Source: an uncultured Succinivibrionaceae bacterium
Lineage (GTDB): Bacteria > Pseudomonadota > Gammaproteobacteria > Enterobacterales > Succinivibrionaceae
Length of the DNA stretch: 64,000 nucleotides
Assembly (NCBI GenBank): GCA_944393045.1
Contig: CALXYT010000005.1
Coordinates: 1-64,000, forward strand
Reading direction: 5' to 3'
The notes below the pieces were generated by a model. That model was not told the origin of the DNA and ran no database searches. It saw nothing but the letters and a program-made list of their open reading frames with translations. The translations under genes and the position numbers were made by a program. This document shows positions 38,952 to 54,505 of this stretch, in pieces. Position 1 is the stretch's first letter. Each line of letters begins with the position of its first letter.

Positions 38952-39036
38952 GCCCGGGTGGTGGAATTGGTAGACACGCTACCTTGAGGTGGTAGTGCGT
39001 AACGGCGTACGGGTTCAAGTCCCGTCTCGGGTACCA
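38952..39036 (+). tRNA. leuU: tRNA-Leu (anticodon GAG), copy 1
   Basis: 85-nt cloverleaf. Anticodon loop cTTGAGGt. Long variable arm typical of Leu. Near-identical to E. coli leuU, which likewise follows secG. Ends in CCA. Confidence 0.9.
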
Positions 39037-39141
39037 TTAAAAAACTTAATAGTCAATATCTAGCTACTAAATTGGCTCTTAAGTAATCTTAAAATTAGTA
39101 GCAACCGTTTAATTAAGCTTAATGCTTAAATTTACAATTAT

Positions 39142-39226
39142 GCCCGGGTGGTGGAATTGGTAGACACGCTACCTTGAGGTGGTAGTGCGTAACGGCGTAC
39201 GGGTTCAAGTCCCGTCTCGGGTACCA
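39142..39226 (+). tRNA. leuU: tRNA-Leu (anticodon GAG), copy 2
   Basis: Sequence identical to copy 1, 105 bp downstream; the short upstream tgcccggg context is also repeated. Confidence 0.9.
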
Positions 39227-39617
39227 ACTTTTTTCCTCTTATAAATAAAGTTAGTGAAAGAGTAATGCAAATTACTCTTTTGCTTACTTATTTTTTTAAC
39301 CTTTTGCAAAAGATTCACTTTCTGTATGTTGATTGCATAAATTTACATATTAGTTCTATCTTCCTCAATTATTCGCAAAAGTATACTTTCTGCGATACAA
39401 TACTTTTTATCAAAGTTTAAGTAATTTAAATTTTAAAATTCTGTAAAAAATTACTTGATTTGTGCGTATAAAAACTATATTATAACAAATATAATGTTGT
39501 GCTAAATCATTGCCATTGGCTCATATTTGTTATAAGCGTCAGCTAGGTTTATAATTAGCAATAACAAAAATATAATTATAAATACAAATATAAATTGAAG
39601 AAACACAAGGAATAACT

Positions 39618-40478
39618 GTGAAAAAATTTTTACTTTTATTAGCGTTTGTTGCTACTATTCCTTTTACTTTAGCTCACGGAGCTCCTGCAAAATATAGAGT
39701 AGCAGTAGGTGAATTAGTAGTAAGCGATCAGGTTAATCCAAAGCAAGCTAAGATTGTTAAGGAATCTAGTTTAATTGCTGATATTGAGAATGCTATTCGA
39801 AATGGTAGAAAGTTTGATTTACTTTCACGCCGTCAGGAAACTTTAACTGCTATTCGTAATGAACAGAAGTTTGCGCAAAGTGGTTTAGCTGCTAAAGATG
39901 CTGCTTTTACAGGTCAGCTTTCTAACGCTCAGGCTATTGTTCAGGTTGAGGTATTAGTCTTTAGTTTTGGGAGAAACGCCTCTAAAGTTCCTCACCTAGA
40001 AAATAAATACCGTGTAAGTGATAATTGTTCTATTGAATTAGCAGTACAAATCGTTGATACCACCAAAGGCACAGTACTAGGAGCTTTTCCGATTAAAGCA
40101 TCTTCAGGCAGTGGTACTTTTGTGAATAATGGTATTGGTGGTGCTAGTCGTTTAATCTTAGATAAAACTATGCAAAAAGCTGCTGCCTCACTAGCCAATC
40201 AGCTTTCTGATACTGTTTATCCAATCACTGTTATTACCGTAAAAGGTAATGATATCTATATTAACCGTGGTAATGATTCAGGTATAAAACAAGGCGAAAT
40301 ATTTGAAGTATTTGCTCCGGGTGAAGAACTCATTGACCCACAAACAGGTGAAAATCTTGGTACAACTGAAACCTTAGTAGGTAAGGTTAAAGTTAAAAAG
40401 ATTAACCCAAAAGTAACTATCGTAAGACCATTAACTTCTAATTTAGAAGTGCAAGCTGGCTATATTCTTCGTAGATAA
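39618..40478 (+). CDS. Secreted protein with an N-terminal LpoB/TolB-N-like domain and a C-terminal beta-rich domain (paralogue of the next gene)
   Basis: Signal peptide (…TLAHG|APAK). N-domain pattern YRVAVGELVV…IADIENAIRNGRKFDLLSRRQ matches the LpoB/CsgG/FlgT-N type fold signature. The C-terminal ~80 aa align clearly with the C-terminus of the 40576 product. Confidence 0.6.
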   Translation: MKKFLLLLAFVATIPFTLAHGAPAKYRVAVGELVVSDQVNPKQAKIVKESSLIADIENAIRNGRKFDLLSRRQETLTAIRNEQKFAQSGLAAKDAAFTGQLSNAQAIVQVEVLVFSFGRNASKVPHLENKYRVSDNCSIELAVQIVDTTKGTVLGAFPIKASSGSGTFVNNGIGGASRLILDKTMQKAAASLANQLSDTVYPITVITVKGNDIYINRGNDSGIKQGEIFEVFAPGEELIDPQTGENLGTTETLVGKVKVKKINPKVTIVRPLTSNLEVQAGYILRR

Positions 40479-40575
40479 GCTTTTTTTATGGTAGTTTTTT
40501 TTAAAGAATGCTTTAGTAAAGAATAACTTTTACTAAAAGTTATATGCCCAAGTTTTTTATCTTGTAGGTCTTTTT

Positions 40576-41814
40576 ATGAGAAAATTATTTTTAGTTTTGC
40601 TAACTGCTTTTGTCTTTTTATTTGCCCATTTTGCTTATGCTGCCAGTGTTAAGCAACGAGCAGTTGAGGTAACAGCAGTAGGCGCAAATCGTGATGCTGC
40701 AATTCAGGCAGCCTTAGTTGAGGCTGTTTCCCAAGTTACTGGTGTTAAGATTGATTCCAATAACTCTTCATATATTGAAACAAAGTATAGTTCTACCGAA
40801 TCTTCTGAAGATGATGAAGATTCGTTTATCAATAATCTTGATGAGGTGCAAAGTAAGAATATTGAAGCTAAAGCTCAAGGTCATGTGTTAAGTTATGAGC
40901 TTTTAAGTGAAAAAACTTCAGCTGCTAATGAAAAGAATGTTGAGGTAACTATTAGAGCACTAGTTTCTTATTATGATGCAGGTGCGCAGGTAAACCGTCA
41001 GCGCTTGGCAGTGCTTAATTTTAAGATTGACGATGACTCAAAAGTTGCTCGTTCTTTTGCACGTTTACTTGAGCAATCAGTTTCTTCTTATTTAACGCAG
41101 GCTCGTAACTTTGCGGTACTTGATAGAGAGTATTTAGCTGAGCGTGATAGTGAACTTGCGCAATTATTACGTAGTGATGTGTTGCCAGTTGAAAGAGCTC
41201 GTATTGGTAATTCTTTAGGAGCTGACTATATGTTAGTAGGCACTATAAATCACTTTAGTATTAAGCGTGAGCAAGAGGTTATTGCCGTAGTTAATGAAGA
41301 GGCATTAGTTGCTAAAGGTAATGCTGCAATTTCTTGGCGTTTAATCAATGTGCCAACCGGAATGGTAGTTGCCTCTAAGCTTGAGAATATCTCCTTTAAT
41401 GAACCAATAGCTGATTCTTTTGAGAGTGCTTTAGTTCGTCCGGCAGAAAAAGTAGGTACTAATATCGCAAGTAGAATCAACGAAACTATTTATCCAATCT
41501 TAGTGGTAGCTAATCGTAATGGCACTCTAACTATTGGTAGAGGTGGCGATTATATCTCTCAAGGAGAAACTTACGATTTAATTGAATATGGTCAAGGAAT
41601 GTATGATCCATATACTAACGAGCCAATTGCTTATGAGGAATATGTTATTGGTAAGGTAGAAATTACTAAAGTAGATCCAAAACTTTCATATGCGAAAGTT
41701 ATTAGTATTACTAAAGATTTACCTGCGCAAATTATACCTAATACTTTAATTATCAGAAAAAGTGCACACATAAATCAGGAGAAACACGTAAAAACATTAC
41801 AACCAAATTGGTAA
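40576..41814 (+). CDS. Secreted protein with an LpoB/TolB-N-like domain and a C-terminal beta-rich domain (paralogue of the previous gene)
   Basis: Signal peptide (…HFAYA|ASVK). RLAVLNFKIDDDSKVARSFARLLEQSVSSYL…LGADYMLVGTINHF is a TolB-N/LpoB-like signature. C-terminus YPILVVANRNGTLTIGRGGDYISQGETYDL…DPYTNEPIAYEEYVIGKVEITKVDPK parallels the 39618 protein. Confidence 0.6.
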   Translation: MRKLFLVLLTAFVFLFAHFAYAASVKQRAVEVTAVGANRDAAIQAALVEAVSQVTGVKIDSNNSSYIETKYSSTESSEDDEDSFINNLDEVQSKNIEAKAQGHVLSYELLSEKTSAANEKNVEVTIRALVSYYDAGAQVNRQRLAVLNFKIDDDSKVARSFARLLEQSVSSYLTQARNFAVLDREYLAERDSELAQLLRSDVLPVERARIGNSLGADYMLVGTINHFSIKREQEVIAVVNEEALVAKGNAAISWRLINVPTGMVVASKLENISFNEPIADSFESALVRPAEKVGTNIASRINETIYPILVVANRNGTLTIGRGGDYISQGETYDLIEYGQGMYDPYTNEPIAYEEYVIGKVEITKVDPKLSYAKVISITKDLPAQIIPNTLIIRKSAHINQEKHVKTLQPNW

Positions 41815-41833: not shown

Positions 41834-43318
41834 ATGAATAAGAATTTACAGTTTAAAAAGTGCCTGTTAAGTATGATCGTTGCTTCATCAGTAGTATTTG
41901 CAAGTGAAGCTCTGGCAGAGGAGGCTGTTTTAGGGCAATCAACTCCTGTTACCACAGGACAAGAGCTTGCAATGAGTAATGTAGCATCACAATCAAAGGT
42001 TGATTTATCAAATATTGGTACTGAATTAAACGATGTATCCCAAACTGATGATAAGTTATTACAAGACGCTCCTCAAGAAGTTAAGCAAAATGTATTATTA
42101 GATGTTTTAGTGCAGCAAAAAATCGATAACTTCTTAGCAGATCATGGTATTTCTAATGGTTTTGGGAAATCTGCGGATACTGAAGGCAAAATTGGTTTTG
42201 GGGCTGCACAAATTGTTGATAAACCAGTTTCTCATGCTGAATATGCTAAGTATCGTGTAATGGCTTATGAAAAAGCTTACGAAAAAGCATTAAAGACTTT
42301 TATTCAAGATAATGCAGTAATGATTCAGGCGCAAACTTTATCAGAACTTTATACTGACGCCTCAACTCCAATGCCCCCTGAAACCGTATTAAAAGAAGGT
42401 AAAGGTTCATTTGGGGCTTTATGGGATAAGGTAGTAGCTTTAGCAGATTCTGAAGTTAGTGGCATGCTTGAGAAAAATGGCGTTGATCCAAAGCAGTATA
42501 ATGCTCGCAATCCTGATCAAAAGAAAGAGCTTATTCGTGATATGATTGCCAAAAAAGAAGTAGCTAATATTGCCAAGACTCTATCTGGTTTAACTGTGGC
42601 GCAGACCTTCTTTGAGGTTAATGGTGAAGATTCAGCTGTGGGGGTTGTGATTTTCTATTCACCAAAGACTCAGGCTTTGGCTGAAAGCTTACGTGCAGGT
42701 TTAAAGCCTGCAATTAACAATACTGGTAAGGCTTTGACTGACCTTTTACCATTAAATGAACCTGCCAAGCTTTACGATATGATTGGTACCAGATTATTAG
42801 TAGATGAAACTGGTCCAGTTATTGTAAGTTTTGGGCAATGGGCAAATGTAAGTACTGCAAATTCTCAATCAGTAAAGGCTCGTTATAGAAATGCAGCTAT
42901 TAGACAAGCAGATCAGATGTCTTTAAGTCAGATAGCATCATTTTTAAACTTAAGCTTTAGTGCAAAAAATGAAACTGAACGTAGTTCTCTTTTAGTAGAG
43001 GCGGCTATTACCGATGGGGATACTGGTATGATTACCAATGAAAGCAGAAGCCAAATCGTTGATATTGTAAGAGAACATTCAAGATCTCGTGCCAGTGAGT
43101 TATTACGTGGTGCAAGAACTCTTAAGCAGTGGGTATATATCACTCCTCAAGGTCAAGAGGTAGTAGGGGTAATCAAGGCTTATAGTTTTGCAAGTATGCA
43201 GCAGGCCATTAATATGGGCAAGAAAACTATTAACTCTAATAATCCTAACACCACCAACAGTGCTGCCGGTACAAGTTCTCGTCAAGGTGAGGTAGTTACT
43301 GACTTTAATGTATTTTAG
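41834..43318 (+). CDS. Hypothetical secreted protein (494 aa)
   Basis: Signal peptide (…FASEALA|EEA). Gene start 19 bp after the preceding stop, so probably co-transcribed. No family recognised. Confidence 0.5.
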   Translation: MNKNLQFKKCLLSMIVASSVVFASEALAEEAVLGQSTPVTTGQELAMSNVASQSKVDLSNIGTELNDVSQTDDKLLQDAPQEVKQNVLLDVLVQQKIDNFLADHGISNGFGKSADTEGKIGFGAAQIVDKPVSHAEYAKYRVMAYEKAYEKALKTFIQDNAVMIQAQTLSELYTDASTPMPPETVLKEGKGSFGALWDKVVALADSEVSGMLEKNGVDPKQYNARNPDQKKELIRDMIAKKEVANIAKTLSGLTVAQTFFEVNGEDSAVGVVIFYSPKTQALAESLRAGLKPAINNTGKALTDLLPLNEPAKLYDMIGTRLLVDETGPVIVSFGQWANVSTANSQSVKARYRNAAIRQADQMSLSQIASFLNLSFSAKNETERSSLLVEAAITDGDTGMITNESRSQIVDIVREHSRSRASELLRGARTLKQWVYITPQGQEVVGVIKAYSFASMQQAINMGKKTINSNNPNTTNSAAGTSSRQGEVVTDFNVF

Positions 43319-43416: not shown

Positions 43417-44868
43417 ATGAAGATAAAACTAATTATTCCGCTTTTATGTTTGCTTTTTAGTATAACAGGTTGCGCCACAAGAAGTGATTCATTGGGCCTG
43501 ACTGATAATTCAGATATCTTCACAAATTATTCTCAATCTTATAAGCCTGCAAGAGAGGCATTATTAGCTGGTAATACTACTGATATTATTCAGAGATTTA
43601 AACTTCGTTTTACCACAGAAGATGGTGTAAAGCTTTCGCGTGATGAAATGCTCGATCTTATGATTGAGAACGATAGCGCTCTTTCGATGATAGAAAAAGG
43701 ACTTATTTTATTAAATAGTGGGGAATTTGAGACAGCGTTAATTTTTTTTGATGCCGCAGAAAAGTCTATTAAATTAGATGAGGAAGAAGGCTTTACTGCT
43801 GGTGATTTCTTAAAGTCTAGTGTTTCAGTATTATTTGGTACTGAAGAGTTAGAGGATTATGAATTACGTAGTTATGAAAAAGTAATGATGCTCAATTACA
43901 AGGCATTATGTTATATGCTCTTAGGGGATCGTAAAGCATATAATGTAACTCGTAGAGCTATTGATTTACAGCAAAGAGAATGGGAAAAATTTAAAGCCAA
44001 GCAACTAGAATTACAAAAAGATATTGAAGAAGAAAAGCGCATAGCTAATAACGAAAATAAAGATACTGATATTGACGTAGATACCTTATCGCAACAGGCA
44101 AAAGAAGAGGCTAAATTAGTTACTAGTGCTTATGTTAATCCATTTAGTGATTATATGAACGGTCTACTGATGGAATTAGATAGCTTTGAGGATGTGGCTA
44201 TTGGTGATAATGCTAGTATTTCATATAGTAAAGTTATTGCTAATAATAAACGCTGCAAAGCTGCAAAAGAGGCAATAAAGGATTTAAAAAAGTCCAAAAA
44301 ACCAAGAGGTAAAAAGTTAGTACAGGTACTTTTAGCTGATGGTTTTGCGCCAACACGCGATATAGTTACTAAAGATATTGAAGGTTTTGCGACAGTAAAT
44401 TTTGCGGATCCTGTTGAAGTTCCTTCTATGGTCGAAAGCGCAAAAGTTATTGTAAAGCGCAAAAAATATAACTTCTCCTCATTAAGTGAAATTCAGGCTA
44501 TTGTTTATCGTGATGAAATGGATAATTTACTTTATCGTTATTTCATGGTGCTTGGACAGATGCTCCGTTCTGGATTTTTATATGTTGATGGAGAAGAGGG
44601 GGGTGGCTTATTAAATAAGCTTATAACAAGACTCCAGGTGCCTGATACTCGCTCTTGGTTATCATTACCTAAGAAGGTGCAGGTAGCTAGATTTTTTGTG
44701 CCAAATAAAGTTAATGAAATAACAATACAGACTTTTGATAAAAATAGTGGTAAGTTAGCATCAGTAGATATAGCTCTTGCTAAGAAGGGACCTACCGTTG
44801 TTTATGCTGTTAGCTACGATAAGTCATTAAAGGCTTATGCTAATATGAAGTCTTGGATTGATGAGTAA
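43417..44868 (+). CDS. Hypothetical lipoprotein with a helical (TPR-like) N-terminal region (483 aa)
   Basis: Lipobox FSITGC. A helical repeat-like N-terminal third, a charged Lys/Glu-rich linker, then a C-terminal α/β region. No family recognised. Confidence 0.5.
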   Translation: MKIKLIIPLLCLLFSITGCATRSDSLGLTDNSDIFTNYSQSYKPAREALLAGNTTDIIQRFKLRFTTEDGVKLSRDEMLDLMIENDSALSMIEKGLILLNSGEFETALIFFDAAEKSIKLDEEEGFTAGDFLKSSVSVLFGTEELEDYELRSYEKVMMLNYKALCYMLLGDRKAYNVTRRAIDLQQREWEKFKAKQLELQKDIEEEKRIANNENKDTDIDVDTLSQQAKEEAKLVTSAYVNPFSDYMNGLLMELDSFEDVAIGDNASISYSKVIANNKRCKAAKEAIKDLKKSKKPRGKKLVQVLLADGFAPTRDIVTKDIEGFATVNFADPVEVPSMVESAKVIVKRKKYNFSSLSEIQAIVYRDEMDNLLYRYFMVLGQMLRSGFLYVDGEEGGGLLNKLITRLQVPDTRSWLSLPKKVQVARFFVPNKVNEITIQTFDKNSGKLASVDIALAKKGPTVVYAVSYDKSLKAYANMKSWIDE

Positions 44869-44890: not shown

Positions 44891-45349
44891 ATGAAAACTA
44901 AATTACTATTAGCTATGGCAGTAATGCTTTCATTAGGTGGCTGCGCGTCTAATAATACCGAGCAAGAAGTGCAAGTTCCATTAGAGATTCGTTCTAATCC
45001 TCAGCTTGCCATTATCTATTCAGATGAAATGGCTGCCAGAGCACTGGTACCAATGAGTATTAATGTTGATAATTCACAAAAATTACCACGAGCTGTGGTG
45101 CGCATGAAAAATCGTGCTACTATTGATGTTCCAATGGAATATCAGGTGCAGTGGGAAGATGCTTATGGAGCACCTATTCAGATTAAGGCTGCCTGGCAAA
45201 GAATGGTAATGCCTGCAAATGCCGAAAAAACTATTGTTAATCTTGGTAAGAGCGAAGATGCTAAAACTGCTACTATTCACATTCGTTTAGCAACTGATGT
45301 AGAAATTTGGGTACCATATCCTGATCCGGTAGAGTTAATTAGACAGTAG
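44891..45349 (+). CDS. ycfL: YcfL-family lipoprotein (DUF1425)
   Basis: Lipobox SLGGC. YQVQWEDAYGAPI matches the YcfL YRFYWYDERG core. Sits immediately upstream of lpoB, as in E. coli. Confidence 0.6.
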   Translation: MKTKLLLAMAVMLSLGGCASNNTEQEVQVPLEIRSNPQLAIIYSDEMAARALVPMSINVDNSQKLPRAVVRMKNRATIDVPMEYQVQWEDAYGAPIQIKAAWQRMVMPANAEKTIVNLGKSEDAKTATIHIRLATDVEIWVPYPDPVELIRQ

Positions 45350-45366: not shown

Positions 45367-45894
45367 ATGCTTGTGAAATTATTAACATCAGTAGTACTTA
45401 CATTATCTGCACTAACTGCTTTAACAGCATGTTCAAGAAATGATGCTTATTATGGTAGAACTACCAGTGTTTCCATAGTTGATTCATCAGAACGTTTAAA
45501 GTTAAATACTAAAATTAGCTTATCAGATGTTATTGCTTTTGCGGAAAATCTTACTAATAAGATGCTCACCTCAAAGTATATTGCACGTGCTAAGAAGCCA
45601 CCACGAGTGATTGTGGCAGAACTACGCCAAAATACTCATGATGAAAATCTTCGTATTGAGGATATTCAGGACCGCATTACTGAGGTGTTGTTAAACTCAG
45701 CTCAAGTGCGTATTGTAGATGAAAGCGCAAATCGTTTTGATTATATTATGCGTACCGAAATTACTGATATGATAACTTATGCGCCTGATGGACAGAAGTT
45801 AGTAGATTACACCATGAAAATTAAGCTTTTTGATATAAATGGAGAGCTTAAAGGTCAGTGGTCTGATGATTTATCCTTGTTTAAGAATAGATAG
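45367..45894 (+). CDS. lpoB: Penicillin-binding protein activator LpoB-family lipoprotein
   Basis: Lipobox ALTAC. Matches the E. coli LpoB C-terminal domain pattern (AENLTNKML…RVIVAELRQNTHDENLRIEDIQDRITEVLLNSAQVRIVD…ANRFDYIMRTEITDM). The true start may be the GTG at 45373, which has AAGGAG 6 nt upstream. Confidence 0.65.
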   Translation: MLVKLLTSVVLTLSALTALTACSRNDAYYGRTTSVSIVDSSERLKLNTKISLSDVIAFAENLTNKMLTSKYIARAKKPPRVIVAELRQNTHDENLRIEDIQDRITEVLLNSAQVRIVDESANRFDYIMRTEITDMITYAPDGQKLVDYTMKIKLFDINGELKGQWSDDLSLFKNR

Positions 45895-45940: not shown

Positions 45941-45971
45941 AACGGGTAAGTATGAGCTTATCCGTTTTTTA
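45941..45971 (+). terminator. Rho-independent terminator after lpoB
   Basis: Stem aacgggtaag / cttatccgtt (one G·U pair), 6-nt loop, then TTTTTTATT. Confidence 0.6.
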
Positions 45972-46079: not shown

Positions 46080-46883
46080 TTAAAAAGTCCTTTCCACAAT
46101 GGTTTTTGGGAAAAGGGCAGTTATTACATCTTTAAGTTCATCGGTGTAATTTACGCCACTCATAGACATGGATAATACTTCTTTAATGCCTCGAGCTTTT
46201 AAATGACTAAAGATGGTAATCCAGTTTGAGAGTGATTCTTTTGGCATAAAAGGAAGACCCAGCATACTTGCATGTCCCTCAAAATCCAGTCCCAGAATAA
46301 GAAATGCTATATGGTTTTGCATTTCTCCTTCTTGATTAGGAAGCTCTACATAAATTCTTGATACTAATATATTTGAGTAGGAAGATTTTAATTTTTTGAT
46401 AAGCCATTTTTTTATGGAATTAGCAACAGCGTCTTTTATAAGGTCAATTTTTTCTTGGGGTAATAAAGAGGTATAAAGGTCATTGATAATAGGAGTGATA
46501 TCTTTTTGGTTCATTCCTTGGGTATATAACGCCAATACCTTACTATCTCTCCATAAAACATCAGTTTGTCTTTTAGAGATGATAATAGGTTTAAAGGTTG
46601 CCTCTCTATCACGAGGGTTTTTTATAATAATTTTACCAAAAGTTCCGTTAATAGTTTTTAGGGTGTGACCATTACGTCTATTAGCTGTGTTTTTTGGGGA
46701 GGTATCATTTTTTCTAAAACCTATATGAGCTTCAAGTTCAGCGTTAAGTAAGCTCTCAAAAATAAGAGTATAAGCCTCCTGCAAACCTTGGTGATGATCT
46801 AAAAAAGAAAGTTGGTGTTCTAATTTAGAAGTTTGATTATTGTTTGGCATGTCATTTCGATTTTGCAAGGAGGTTTTTGTCAT
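46080..46883 (-). pseudogene. IS256-family (Mutator-type) transposase, N-terminal ~2/3 fragment; IS remnant
   Basis: LEAHIGF…NRRNGH…KTINGTFGKIIIKNPRDREATFKP…ISKRQ follows the IS256 transposase N-terminal signature. The C-terminal W..IF..LK.RG…MSMSGV…ITALFPKTIVER region is present, but the ORF stops before the rest of the catalytic domain. Only ~180 bp remain before lpoB, so the element is truncated. I did not identify inverted repeats. Confidence 0.65.
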
Positions 46884-52723: not shown

Positions 52724-54505
52724 ATGAAGATTAAAGCAGCGCTTGGGGCGTTAATTTTTGGGGTGGCAACTCCAGTTGTAGCAGCAACTACGCCTTTTTA
52801 TAACATTGAAGTGGTTAATAGTGGAACATATGATTTTAAGTATGGTCCTTTTGCGAAGGCTTTAAGTGAAGGGGAAACCCCAAAAGCAACATCAATGCTC
52901 TTAAAAAATAATATGTTTAATTATTTTTTATTAGCACCACATCAATATGACTTCGGGCAAAGAATGAACCGTAAAAGAGGTTGCTCTGCGCTTCAGAGTG
53001 ATGTTTGTGGGGCTTATTGGGATGGCATAGGTAATACTATGGCATCAGCTTGGAATCATGATATTGTTTATTATACCCCTCAGCAGAAATCACTAATCAA
53101 TAATGAGGCAACCACAGTCTTTACTGAAAATCAGATGATTTATAATAAGATTGCCTCTGATGGCGTATCAGGTGTTGGTTTTAAGGTTGATGAAGCAACA
53201 AAGACTAATATTTCTCGCCATGAGGTTTATGGTATTGCTAAATTTAATAATAAGACCTTTATTTTAAAAAGCCCAATAAGCTATACCTATCGAGGACAGG
53301 ATATTGGTGGATATGCTACGGCACTAACTTATTTAGAGCTTGATAGTGGTAAAATCCTAGTTGGTGGCTATGCATCTTATGATAGAAATCATGAAGATGA
53401 CTGGTTTGAGGATTGTTACGGATCATATGATTACGATAACGATTATATTTATTATTATTCTTGTCCTTCTTTCAAGATGCAGGCTACTTTATGGTTAATT
53501 GATCCTGAAAATGATCTTGATAATGCCCAAATTATCGGAACTCAGGCGCCTGAATATTATAATTATAGTACCACTGATGATGAGTTAGCAGAAGCTGCAG
53601 TAACTAACTTAGTTAAGTTTAATGATAAGATTGTAGCATTAGGTTATTTGCCTACTGATGAATGGGGGATAACTTCTCTTGCTGTATATTGGGAAATAGC
53701 TCTTGATGAGGCTAATAATAAGGTAAGTTTTAATGGACGTAAGACCTTCAGAAACCTTGAAGATCCAGGTGAGGGCGATGAAAGACATGACTATACATAC
53801 GCTCAAGATGCTAACACCCAAGGTTATGCAATCATTAATACTCAGTATGATAAATCAGTAAACTCTAATTACCCTGCAATTTTTGGGATAAGTAAGTTTA
53901 CTGCTGATTTAAATACTGAAAGCATTTATATGCCACTTGAAAATAATCCTATTCGTGGCGCAAACTCTGTTGCCGAGGATATTAACAATAATAACTTTAT
54001 TGTAGGTTTTCGTGATGCTCGTGGTGAAATTTCTCCTGTAAATGAAAGTGTGGCACGTAGTTCTGAAGGCTTTTTATTTGATATTGAAACTAATAAAGCT
54101 TATTACTTAAATGATACTATCTGCCATATTACTGATAGTGGCGATGCTGACTGTTCTCAAAATGGTAAGTATTACTTTATTGAATGGGCAGTAGCTATTA
54201 ACGATGAGCAGATAGTGCTTGCCTCAGGTTATGAGTATGATTCCTATAATGATTGGGTAAATCGTGAAAATGCTCGTATTGTAACTATGAAACTTGTGCC
54301 AAGTGAAACAGCTTATATAGTTGATCCAAATAATAAGGTGTTAATTAATACCTCATCTGAAAACCCATCTCCAATGGTGTATTACAATCGCCCACAAGAA
54401 AGCTTTGCAGATGATGGTAATGGTGGCGCTATTGGGTCATTTATTCTCATGCTTTTAGGGGGTTTTGTAGGATTAAATTTATTTAGACGTAAAAAGCAGG
54501 TCTAA
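52724..54505 (+). CDS. DUF3466-like secreted protein with a probable GlyGly-CTERM sorting signal
   Basis: Signal peptide ending VVAATTPF. 593 aa is within the DUF3466 size range. The C-terminus GNGGAIGSFILMLLGGFVGLNLFRRKKQV has a Gly-Gly motif, a hydrophobic helix and a basic tail, which is the GlyGly-CTERM/rhombosortase-target architecture. Confidence 0.55.
   Translation: MKIKAALGALIFGVATPVVAATTPFYNIEVVNSGTYDFKYGPFAKALSEGETPKATSMLLKNNMFNYFLLAPHQYDFGQRMNRKRGCSALQSDVCGAYWDGIGNTMASAWNHDIVYYTPQQKSLINNEATTVFTENQMIYNKIASDGVSGVGFKVDEATKTNISRHEVYGIAKFNNKTFILKSPISYTYRGQDIGGYATALTYLELDSGKILVGGYASYDRNHEDDWFEDCYGSYDYDNDYIYYYSCPSFKMQATLWLIDPENDLDNAQIIGTQAPEYYNYSTTDDELAEAAVTNLVKFNDKIVALGYLPTDEWGITSLAVYWEIALDEANNKVSFNGRKTFRNLEDPGEGDERHDYTYAQDANTQGYAIINTQYDKSVNSNYPAIFGISKFTADLNTESIYMPLENNPIRGANSVAEDINNNNFIVGFRDARGEISPVNESVARSSEGFLFDIETNKAYYLNDTICHITDSGDADCSQNGKYYFIEWAVAINDEQIVLASGYEYDSYNDWVNRENARIVTMKLVPSETAYIVDPNNKVLINTSSENPSPMVYYNRPQESFADDGNGGAIGSFILMLLGGFVGLNLFRRKKQV

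Follow-up and report, generated by a model that had tools for sequence, protein, structure and literature searches.

The closest structural relatives of the two proteins treated here all form rings. FlgT, a protein of the Vibrio H-ring, assembles into a 26-mer ring around the LP ring. There the lipidated N-terminal loop of FlgH clamps the middle domain of FlgT, the C-terminal tails of the lipoprotein FlgP enter the clefts between its subunits, and its C-domain forms a scaffold underneath. TsaP carries two barrels of the FlgT_C type and forms a heptamer around the 14-mer of PilQ, and according to the PDB entries that were matched in our searches CsgG and PelC make rings of 9 and 12 subunits. 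Here we describe two adjacent genes, which we call A and B, in a stretch of 64,000 nucleotides (the window) at the start of contig CALXYT010000005.1 from an uncultured Succinivibrionaceae bacterium (assembly GCA_944393045.1). The two proteins are homologous in both of the domains that they have in common and their predicted folds are FlgT-like, and the genes open a cassette, A-B-(C)-D-E-F, that is conserved over many phyla in varied non-flagellar neighbourhoods. A and B are best described as a separate and as yet uncharacterised branch within the CsgG/FlgT module family, in a conserved lipoprotein cassette of its own. Neither of them has a name in the sequence collections that were searched, and full-text literature searches found no description of the cassette or of non-flagellar FlgT-like pairs, an absence that is not proof.

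A and B lie on the same strand, 97 nucleotides apart, and their parts map to the window as follows.

39618..40478, plus strand: open reading frame (ORF) A, 286 residues, from the ORF call, with Pfam matches to CsgG (E 2e-4) and FlgT_C (E 4e-4) and an AlphaFold2 model with a predicted local distance difference test score (pLDDT) of 81
39684..40214, plus strand: middle (M) domain of A, residues 23-199, an alpha/beta fold like those of CsgG, TolB-N and FlgT-M (Pfam, Foldseek, hhalign)
40215..40475, plus strand: C-terminal beta-barrel (C) of A, residues 200-286, of FlgT_C/TsaP type (BLASTP, Pfam, profiles, Foldseek)
40576..41814, plus strand: ORF B, 412 residues, with N-domain, M-domain, C-barrel and a conserved C-terminal tail (Pfam CsgG E 7.5e-7; AlphaFold2 pLDDT 72.5; Foldseek)
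40645..40989, plus strand: N-terminal domain of B, residues 24-138 (family alignment, AlphaFold2 secondary structure, Foldseek)
40750..40878, plus strand: acidic, Ser/Thr-rich loop of low confidence, B residues 59-101, the 'SSTESSEDDEDS' segment (pLDDT below 50, composition)
40990..41490, plus strand: M-domain of B, residues 139-305, homologous to the middle domain of A (Pfam, hhalign)
41491..41769, plus strand: C-terminal beta-barrel of B, residues 306-398, homologous to the barrel of A (BLASTP, Smith-Waterman, hhalign)
41770..41811, plus strand: C-terminal tail of B, residues 399-412, ending in K-T-x-x-P-x-W (family alignments)

Both products start with a predicted Sec signal peptide, read by inspection (residues 1-21 of A, cleaved at AHG-AP, and residues 1-22 of B, cleaved at AYA-AS), and neither has a lipobox Cys. 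Since they carry such signals and no lipobox, A and B are probably located in the periplasm.

The initial annotation of this locus had seen in it two tandem paralogues with a common two-domain architecture, whose C-termini align residue by residue. The ORFs are found where it had put them, and the peptides that it quoted correspond to residues 201-265 of A and 306-369 of B. In BLASTP, residues 170-279 of A align with 275-385 of B (29% identity over 112 residues, E 6e-16), and the two C-terminal domains reach a Smith-Waterman score of 130 against 27 +/- 5 for 1000 shuffles (z = 20.7). For the profile comparisons we used family alignments of 32 A homologues and 21 B homologues, and with these the barrels alone match at a probability of 99.8% (hhalign, E 4e-28). 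The middle domains have no detectable similarity when the two sequences are compared pairwise (z = 0.7), but by family profile they match over 170 columns with a probability of 96.4% (hhalign, E 1.2e-9). At full length hhalign places the whole of mature A (23-286) on B 139-398 (probability 99.9%, E 3.4e-31), and the two controls, the middle domain of A against the N-domain of B and the barrel of A against the middle domain of B, were not significant. As the middle and barrel profiles align and the controls do not, A and B share two homologous domains in the same order. That their similarity is due to chance or composition is ruled out by BLASTP, by the shuffling and by the domain-profile comparisons. 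The pairwise and the profile-profile comparisons thus both gave significant similarity, and the proposal of tandem paralogues with a common architecture holds, with profiles needed to see it in the middle domain.

By Pfam the middle domain belongs with CsgG. Both proteins pass the gathering score of Pfam CsgG (PF03783, cut-off 20.8), A marginally with 21.0 bits and B with 29.1 bits, with only part of the 210 profile positions covered (50-154 in A, 8-146 in B), and the lesser matches of this domain to LpoB, FlgO and FlgT_M all rank below CsgG. The same Pfam family is matched by 26 of 32 members of the A family and by 20 of 21 members of the B family, and in a PDB search with the B-family profile the middle domain of B found CsgG. 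The name LpoB-like, which this domain had been given at first, stands at the level of the superfamily, but CsgG scores higher and the LpoB thresholds are reached by neither A nor B. The C-domain had been taken for a small SH3-like barrel, which we can correct: by Pfam, profiles and Foldseek it is a barrel of the FlgT_C/TsaP type. In A, where it carries the motif NRG..G...G...GE.L.DP.TGE.LG..E..G...V..V.PK, it matches Pfam FlgT_C below the gathering score, and 24 of 32 members of the A family match FlgT_C. The profile search against PDB reached TsaP through the barrel (6VE2, E 2e-10 and 8.5e-8; also 3JC8).

The structure comparisons with Foldseek against PDB put FlgT at the top for both models, for B with 3W1E (E 7e-20 over 422 columns) and 8Z5N (E 7e-19), and for A with 8Z5N and 3W1E (E about 4e-14, about 280 columns). 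CsgG, PelC, HpaA, TolB and LptE come below FlgT. The model of A also has Foldseek matches to ATPase barrels, and the C-domain resembles the N-terminal barrel of the F1/FliI ATPases.

What B has in addition to A is its N-terminal domain. The initial annotation had read this as an acidic, Ser-rich insertion of about 120 residues, and one part of that reading is right: there is a true acidic, Ser/Thr-rich segment at residues 59-101, where 11 of the 43 residues are D/E and another 11 are S/T and where pLDDT falls below 50. The extra stretch of about 115 residues is, however, a separate and conserved domain, and the segment is a loop inside it. The AlphaFold2 model gives this domain a strand (24-36), a helix (39-55), the low-confidence stretch (59-101) and two more strands (103-114 and 122-134), so that the loop lies between the helix and the second strand. 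The domain is conserved through the B family, with the motif G.G..R..A...AL..AV.QV.GV in the alignment of 21 homologues; the loop differs between B homologues in both length and sequence. One variant of B that is 21 residues shorter (P0122) proved uninformative, as its deletion is in the barrel and not in the acidic loop. The N-domain has no match in Pfam, and when it was searched alone against PDB by sequence there was no match either. The B-family profile gave one weak PDB match (E 0.17), to chain C of 9HMF, a putative lipoprotein of 171 residues in a C. jejuni flagellar motor entry which we presume to be FlgP, and this match is not used as evidence. The predicted strand-helix-strand-strand order resembles the SHS2-like fold that FlgP, Lpp20 and the N-domain of FlgT are described as having, and among these proteins an insertion that follows the helix and precedes strand two is reported to correlate with ring formation (PMC12222027). 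The acidic loop of B lies at this same place.

At the other end of B a variable linker follows the barrel, and the protein then terminates in the conserved motif K-T-[LM]-x-P-x-W-COOH. In more distant B homologues the chain finishes with GGVKLPFD or with W, and in the two-module protein of Methylococcaceae with KPAF. By analogy with the C-terminal loops of FlgP and FlgO, which bind the FlgT ring, the KT..P.W end of B may be a docking tail.

Four more genes come after B on the same strand, with gaps of 17-98 nucleotides.

41834..43318, plus strand: ORF C, 494 residues, Sec signal (by inspection), DUF6844 (E 1e-20; PDB 4QVR, E 1.7e-17, residues 7-488)
43417..44868, plus strand: ORF D, a lipoprotein of 483 residues, lipobox ITG-C (by inspection), weakly like the tetratricopeptide repeat (TPR) proteins
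44891..45349, plus strand: ORF E, a lipoprotein of 152 residues, DUF1425/YcfL family (44.9 bits against a cut-off of 28.3)
45367..45894, plus strand: ORF F, a lipoprotein of 175 residues with an LpoB-like domain (PF13036, 28.6 bits against 22.3)

The E family matches E. coli YcfL with a probability of 95.9% (hhalign, E 5.5e-9), and the F family matches the globular domain of E. coli LpoB (residues 74-211) with a probability of 96.2% (hhalign, E 2.4e-9). F lies under the LpoB equivalog TIGR02722 (26.9 bits against 110.55) and has only a weak relationship to the M-domains of A and B (probability 48-65%). Searched alone against PDB by sequence, E and F had no match. Some orthologues of D carry additional domains, such as an inserted PG_binding_1 domain (L020 5892-7760, E 1e-19) or an SH3_3 domain (L024 13635-16133), which hints from sequence at contact with peptidoglycan. 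The word adaptor, which had been suggested for A and B, is too narrow for a pair that sits in a conserved six-gene lipoprotein cassette.

A genome scan for relatives found more than 527, and the domains were mapped with hidden Markov models over 86 loci (numbered L001 onwards), 80 of them new. The closest relatives, with 53-64% identity, come from gut Mailhella/Desulfovibrionaceae, Sutterella and Parasutterella. The nearest named ones among them, at 60-64%, are metagenome-assembled genomes (MAGs) of Proteobacteria bacterium, Mailhella and Desulfovibrionaceae, and a Turicimonas MAG has 44%. More distant relatives are found in Methylococcaceae, Cycloclasticus, Desulfobacterota, Verrucomicrobiota, Planctomycetota, Nitrospirota and others. 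When 1.84 billion representatives were searched by profile, 5822 relatives passed E <= 1e-3, of which 2145 reached E <= 1e-10. The larger figure counts relatives of the A profile in any context, as cluster representatives, and many of these relatives show 2-5 matched stretches.

D-E-F lies downstream in 41 of the 80 new loci, and 7 further loci carry D before the contig ends. The first gene nearly always encodes an A-type protein of about 295 residues with a single M-C module, and it is the second gene that varies: the gut clade has N-M-C, Methylococcaceae have (M-C)x2 of about 620 residues, and Desulfobacterota, Pseudomonadales and Cycloclasticus-like genomes have (M-C)x3 of about 970 residues. 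L028 10831-12693 and L020 2912-5821 are examples of the two- and the three-module protein. When the copy number was counted over the 41 complete cassettes it ranged from one to four M-C modules (one in 12, two in 13, three in 10 and four in 6). C is confined to the cassettes of the gut clade. In Verrucomicrobiota/Planctomycetota cassettes (L061, L063, L070, L073, L075, L086) a gene with M only precedes the A-type gene; the M-only protein at L063 8629-9813 adds a PEGA domain and has no barrel, a different pairing of the module. The cassette is also present in cultivable gut bacteria, e.g. Parasutterella muris DSM 111000 (L010).

A side group of proteins has the M-C module in a lone gene (L057 7746-8672, L058 9824-10753 and 16 more loci). 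These proteins match CsgG strongly (E 8e-43), and they keep Gly-rich hairpins like TM1/TM2 of CsgG together with the FlgT_C barrel. It may be that they are channels of the CsgG type to which a barrel has been added, and that they connect CsgG with the FlgT-like proteins in evolution.

The duplication behind A and B is ancient: the pair is old and fixed in the cassette, and no recent local event produced it. In a neighbour-joining tree of 96 M-C modules, drawn without support values, the A-type modules of gut Proteobacteria, Desulfobacterota, Methylococcaceae, bacteria of the Planctomycetota-Verrucomicrobiota-Chlamydiota (PVC) group and others form one clade. The B-type modules and the repeat modules of the second genes fall outside it, and B clusters with the first module of the two-module proteins. 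The split must be old, because A-type modules from many phyla stand together and apart from the modules of B and the second genes. The tandem duplication followed by divergence that had been proposed for the pair is therefore right in that the two are true paralogues, but the event did not take place locally. A has also changed much less than B: when both are compared with one set of relatives, the identity is 44-64% for A and 30-42% for B; the values for the other proteins are 50-68% (F), 36-51% (D), 29-43% (C) and 28-45% (E). In a Sutterella MAG (L015 904-3222) the stop codon of A has become GAG, and the ORF runs on into B to a length of 772 residues. We considered this as a "Rosetta" fusion of A and B and rejected it, as a ribosome-binding site, a Met and a signal peptide of its own are all still present in B. 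The probable cause is a point change, or an error of sequencing or assembly in the MAG.

The role of A and B is most likely that of a periplasmic ring or scaffold associated with the outer membrane, an analogy that is drawn from their relatives. A hetero-oligomeric ring is a reasonable inference because the closest structural relatives, i.e. FlgT, TsaP, CsgG and PelC, are all ring formers, and the modules would act side by side since two or three of them, as (M-C)x2 or (M-C)x3, are linked in one chain beside an A-type gene. The proposed mechanism is then as follows. A and B are ancient paralogues of one module, made of a CsgG/TolB-N-like M-domain and an FlgT_C-type barrel, to which B adds a putative SHS2-like N-domain with its acidic insert. 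Exported to the periplasm, as their predicted signal peptides suggest, they would assemble laterally, in the way of FlgT, CsgG, PelC and TsaP, into a hetero-oligomeric ring or lattice below the outer membrane, and the lipoproteins D (TPR-like), E (YcfL-like) and F (LpoB-like) would tether it there. Flexible tails may dock in the grooves between subunits, as the tails of FlgP and FlgH do in the clefts of FlgT, and the KT..P.W end of B is a candidate for this. The most speculative step is the last one, that the complex would act in the maintenance of the outer membrane and peptidoglycan. Such a role is suggested by the ycfL-lpoB-like pair, by the PG_binding_1 and SH3_3 domains in D orthologues and by the envelope phenotype reported for HP0018, a possible relative of D, which is given below.

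We regard this as the best explanation of A, B and the cassette, and give about an even chance to the whole of it, including the analogy of a hetero-oligomeric ring or lattice under the outer membrane that is tethered by D, E and F. The more specific proposal, that the cassette builds a flagellum-independent ring or lattice of the FlgT type from 2-4 paralogous modules, anchored by the YcfL-like, LpoB-like and TPR lipoproteins, is a tentative one and on balance doubtful. There are several points that weigh against a ring. The cassette encodes nothing obvious for it to surround, neither a secretin, nor an outer-membrane barrel, nor a flagellar part, and the window contains no secretin gene and no flagellar or pilus genes. 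In eighteen loci a single M-C gene, closer to CsgG, stands without D-E-F, so the module can work in other contexts, and the only apparent A-B fusion (L015) is a lost stop codon and not a true fusion. The geometry between the domains is uncertain in the AlphaFold2 models (predicted template modelling scores 0.56 and 0.69), and the Foldseek TM-scores to FlgT are low (0.3-0.36) despite the strong E-values. The identity of A and B to FlgT is only 14-16%, and the Pfam thresholds for FlgT are not reached (FlgT_C 21.3 bits against 27 in A, FlgT_M 14.7 against 31.2 in B, and no FlgT_N match).

Other explanations can be set against a periplasmic ring or scaffold. If A and/or B were an outer-membrane secretion channel of the CsgG/HfaB type (PF03783), with C or another product of the cassette as its substrate, one would look for the lipobox of CsgG and HfaB, which A and B both lack, and for the membrane hairpins. 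In an alignment with E. coli CsgG and the CsgG-like protein of L058 (CsgG E 8e-43), the equivalents of TM1 and TM2 in A and B are 3-14 residues shorter, charged and not Gly-rich, and TM2 is almost absent from B. In the A family the tip of the hairpin that corresponds to TM1 is polar and very well conserved (F115, F117, R119, P125, N126, K130), which fits a contact with protein and not a lipid-facing strand. Nor are there partners of the curli or holdfast kind: scans of the four downstream proteins with Pfam and NCBIfam gave DUF6844, DUF1425 and LpoB only, and no csgE/F/A/B or hfaA/D. A and B furthermore carry an FlgT_C barrel that CsgG and HfaB do not have, and their best full-length structural match is FlgT, a soluble ring protein. 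With shortened, charged hairpins and no lipobox a CsgG-type channel is distinctly unlikely. LpoB is an outer-membrane lipoprotein with a long disordered linker that activates the penicillin-binding protein PBP1b, and A and B could likewise be monomeric regulators of peptidoglycan synthases and not subunits of a ring. The ycfL-lpoB-like pair at the end of the cassette, the peptidoglycan-binding domains in some D orthologues and the weak Pfam matches to LpoB agree with this (PF13036, 22.2 bits in B against a threshold of 22.3, 12.7 bits and E 0.12 in A, and matches in 15 of 21 members of the B family). The middle domains are indeed of the same fold superfamily as LpoB, but A and B are far from TIGR02722 (12.6 bits against 110.55 in A, no match in B), they are not lipoproteins and lack the long disordered linker, and neither the additional FlgT_C barrel nor the tandem M-C modules in one chain are like LpoB. 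The cassette moreover has its LpoB-like member in F, which is only weakly related to the middle domains, and we consider regulators of this type improbable.

It could also be that A and B act independently, in separate complexes or under separate conditions, and that they are neighbours for the sake of shared regulation only. The much faster evolution of B, the existence of lone M-C genes and the PVC-type cassettes, in which one complete M-C gene stands with an M-only gene, would all agree with that. Against it, an A-type gene and a second gene are adjacent and in the same order in most cassettes across phyla, and many lineages have two or three modules joined in a single chain beside A, and so we find independent action unlikely. 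The fourth alternative is that B is a true flagellar FlgT orthologue, a subunit of the H-ring, as its best full-length structural match is FlgT and it has the same three domains in the same order and of similar sizes. There are however no flagellar genes in the window or, as far as the local context reaches, beside the cassette in the related loci that we examined, and the B-family profile finds no FlgT chain in PDB by sequence. Its conserved partners are D, E and F, and not FlgO, FlgP and MotX/Y. Several of the host genera, Sutterella and Parasutterella among them, are described as non-motile, which weighs against it too. That B is an FlgT orthologue is hardly credible. B is not a member of FlgT, though fold and layout match, because the Pfam thresholds are not reached and the flagellar partners are missing.

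The surroundings of the cassette in the window are made up of the following elements, beside the upstream genes folP, glmM and secG.

38952..39226, plus strand: two tRNA-Leu(GAG) genes between secG and the cassette, its left border
39527..39576, plus strand: two overlapping sigma-70-like promoter matches before A (consensus match only)
45941..45966, plus strand: terminator-like hairpin with a T-run right after F, the probable end of the operon
46080..46883, minus strand: truncated transposase of the Mutator/IS256 family, the right border (profile positions 14-252 of 379)

The scans for promoters and terminators gave site counts no higher than in shuffled sequence, which is weak support for these operon limits. 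The remaining genes of the window are housekeeping genes (sbcCD, fabF-like, ppk, ftsY, ftsX, dnaK). The identical six-gene order is found again on a 2.8-Mb chromosome in another neighbourhood (L001-L003), beside defence-type genes. The tRNA and transposase borders, this other neighbourhood and the close relatives in two phyla suggest that the cassette is a mobile island, and the close relatives in two gut phyla suggest horizontal spread; the GC content of the cassette, though, is no different from that of its flanks. Elsewhere in the window, and unrelated to the cassette, a DUF3466 protein of 593 residues (52724-54505) has a C-terminal hydrophobic segment followed by RRKKQV.

The paralogy of A and B is by itself ordinary; it is the wider module cassette that is worth a targeted experiment. 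Proteins of the FlgT type are known to build rings around the flagellar LP ring, and the barrel is known from TsaP around the secretin of type IV pili, and here A and B show the module outside of the flagellum and pilus, duplicated as two genes or two to three times per chain and fixed beside genes for YcfL-like, LpoB-like and TPR-like lipoproteins in one operon. The module family has thousands of members, and the cultivable carriers make the question accessible to experiments. If an envelope ring or scaffold is what the cassette makes, it would be a previously unrecognised envelope structure, widespread over Gram-negative phyla, and would give a common structural context to YcfL/DUF1425, to DUF6844/FTT_1539c and possibly to HP0018/Cj0089. 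Such a structure might also be a pool from which the barrels of TsaP and the FlgT/FlgO/FlgP proteins were recruited, and a plausible source of parts for the outer rings of the flagellum. If it is not a ring, A and B still gain a clean domain annotation.

Among the described systems FlgT (3W1E, 8Z5N) is the nearest in layout. B has the same order of three domains, an SHS2-like N-domain, a TolB-N/CsgG-like M-domain and a C-terminal barrel, and its limits (24-138, 139-305, 306-398) run parallel to those of FlgT from V. cholerae (24-109, 121-287, 292-377), while A corresponds to the M- and C-domains of FlgT only. FlgT is, like A and B, exported by Sec and not lipidated, and it is held at the outer membrane by lipoproteins, of which the A/B cassette encodes three. 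The difference is in the company and the copy number: the FlgT partners FlgO, FlgP, FlgH and MotX/Y are absent by the cassette, in the window and in the local context of the loci, D, E and F taking their place here, and the module comes as two paralogous genes or as two to three tandem modules per chain, unlike in FlgT. TsaP (6VE2, 3JC8), which forms its ring with two tandem copies of the barrel, has a barrel that matches the C-barrel of A and B by profile. TsaP also has an N-terminal LysM domain, for which A and B give no Pfam match, and it lacks a middle domain like that of CsgG. No secretin gene lies near A and B.

The downstream half of the cassette has relatives of its own. The E. coli homologues are YcfL for E and LpoB, by its globular domain, for F, with the two genes in the same order as here, and beside ycfL-lpoB E. 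coli has no A, B or D genes. The domain of F begins near residue 49, as against 74 in E. coli LpoB, so the stretch between lipobox and domain is shorter. In C. jejuni Cj0089-Cj0090-Cj0091 is an operon of three lipoproteins (PMC3100323), and in H. pylori HP0018 is a TPR lipoprotein, which stands beside an LpoB homologue in other Helicobacter species and for which hypervesiculation and the co-immunoprecipitation partners MltD and AmiA have been reported (PMC11394524). The layout of Cj0089-90-91 and of HP0018/HP1457 is like that of D-E-F, with a TPR lipoprotein of about 450-480 residues, a small one and an LpoB-like one. This likeness of D, E and F (483, 152 and 175 residues) to the Cj0089/HP0018 group is one of size, lipoprotein nature, weak TPR signal and gene order alone. 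A search with the D profile for homologues in Campylobacter and Helicobacter gave only close relatives of D among the matches listed, and genes of the A/B type are not mentioned in the published accounts of the Cj0089/HP0018 operons. C, finally, is a full-length homologue of Francisella FTT_1539c, a protein of Francisella tularensis with a solved structure (4QVR) that is known so far as an immunodominant antigen. The neighbouring FTT_1540c has the annotation LpoB-like (K07337), an operon is predicted for FTT1537c-1540c, and Francisella may carry a reduced version of the cassette.

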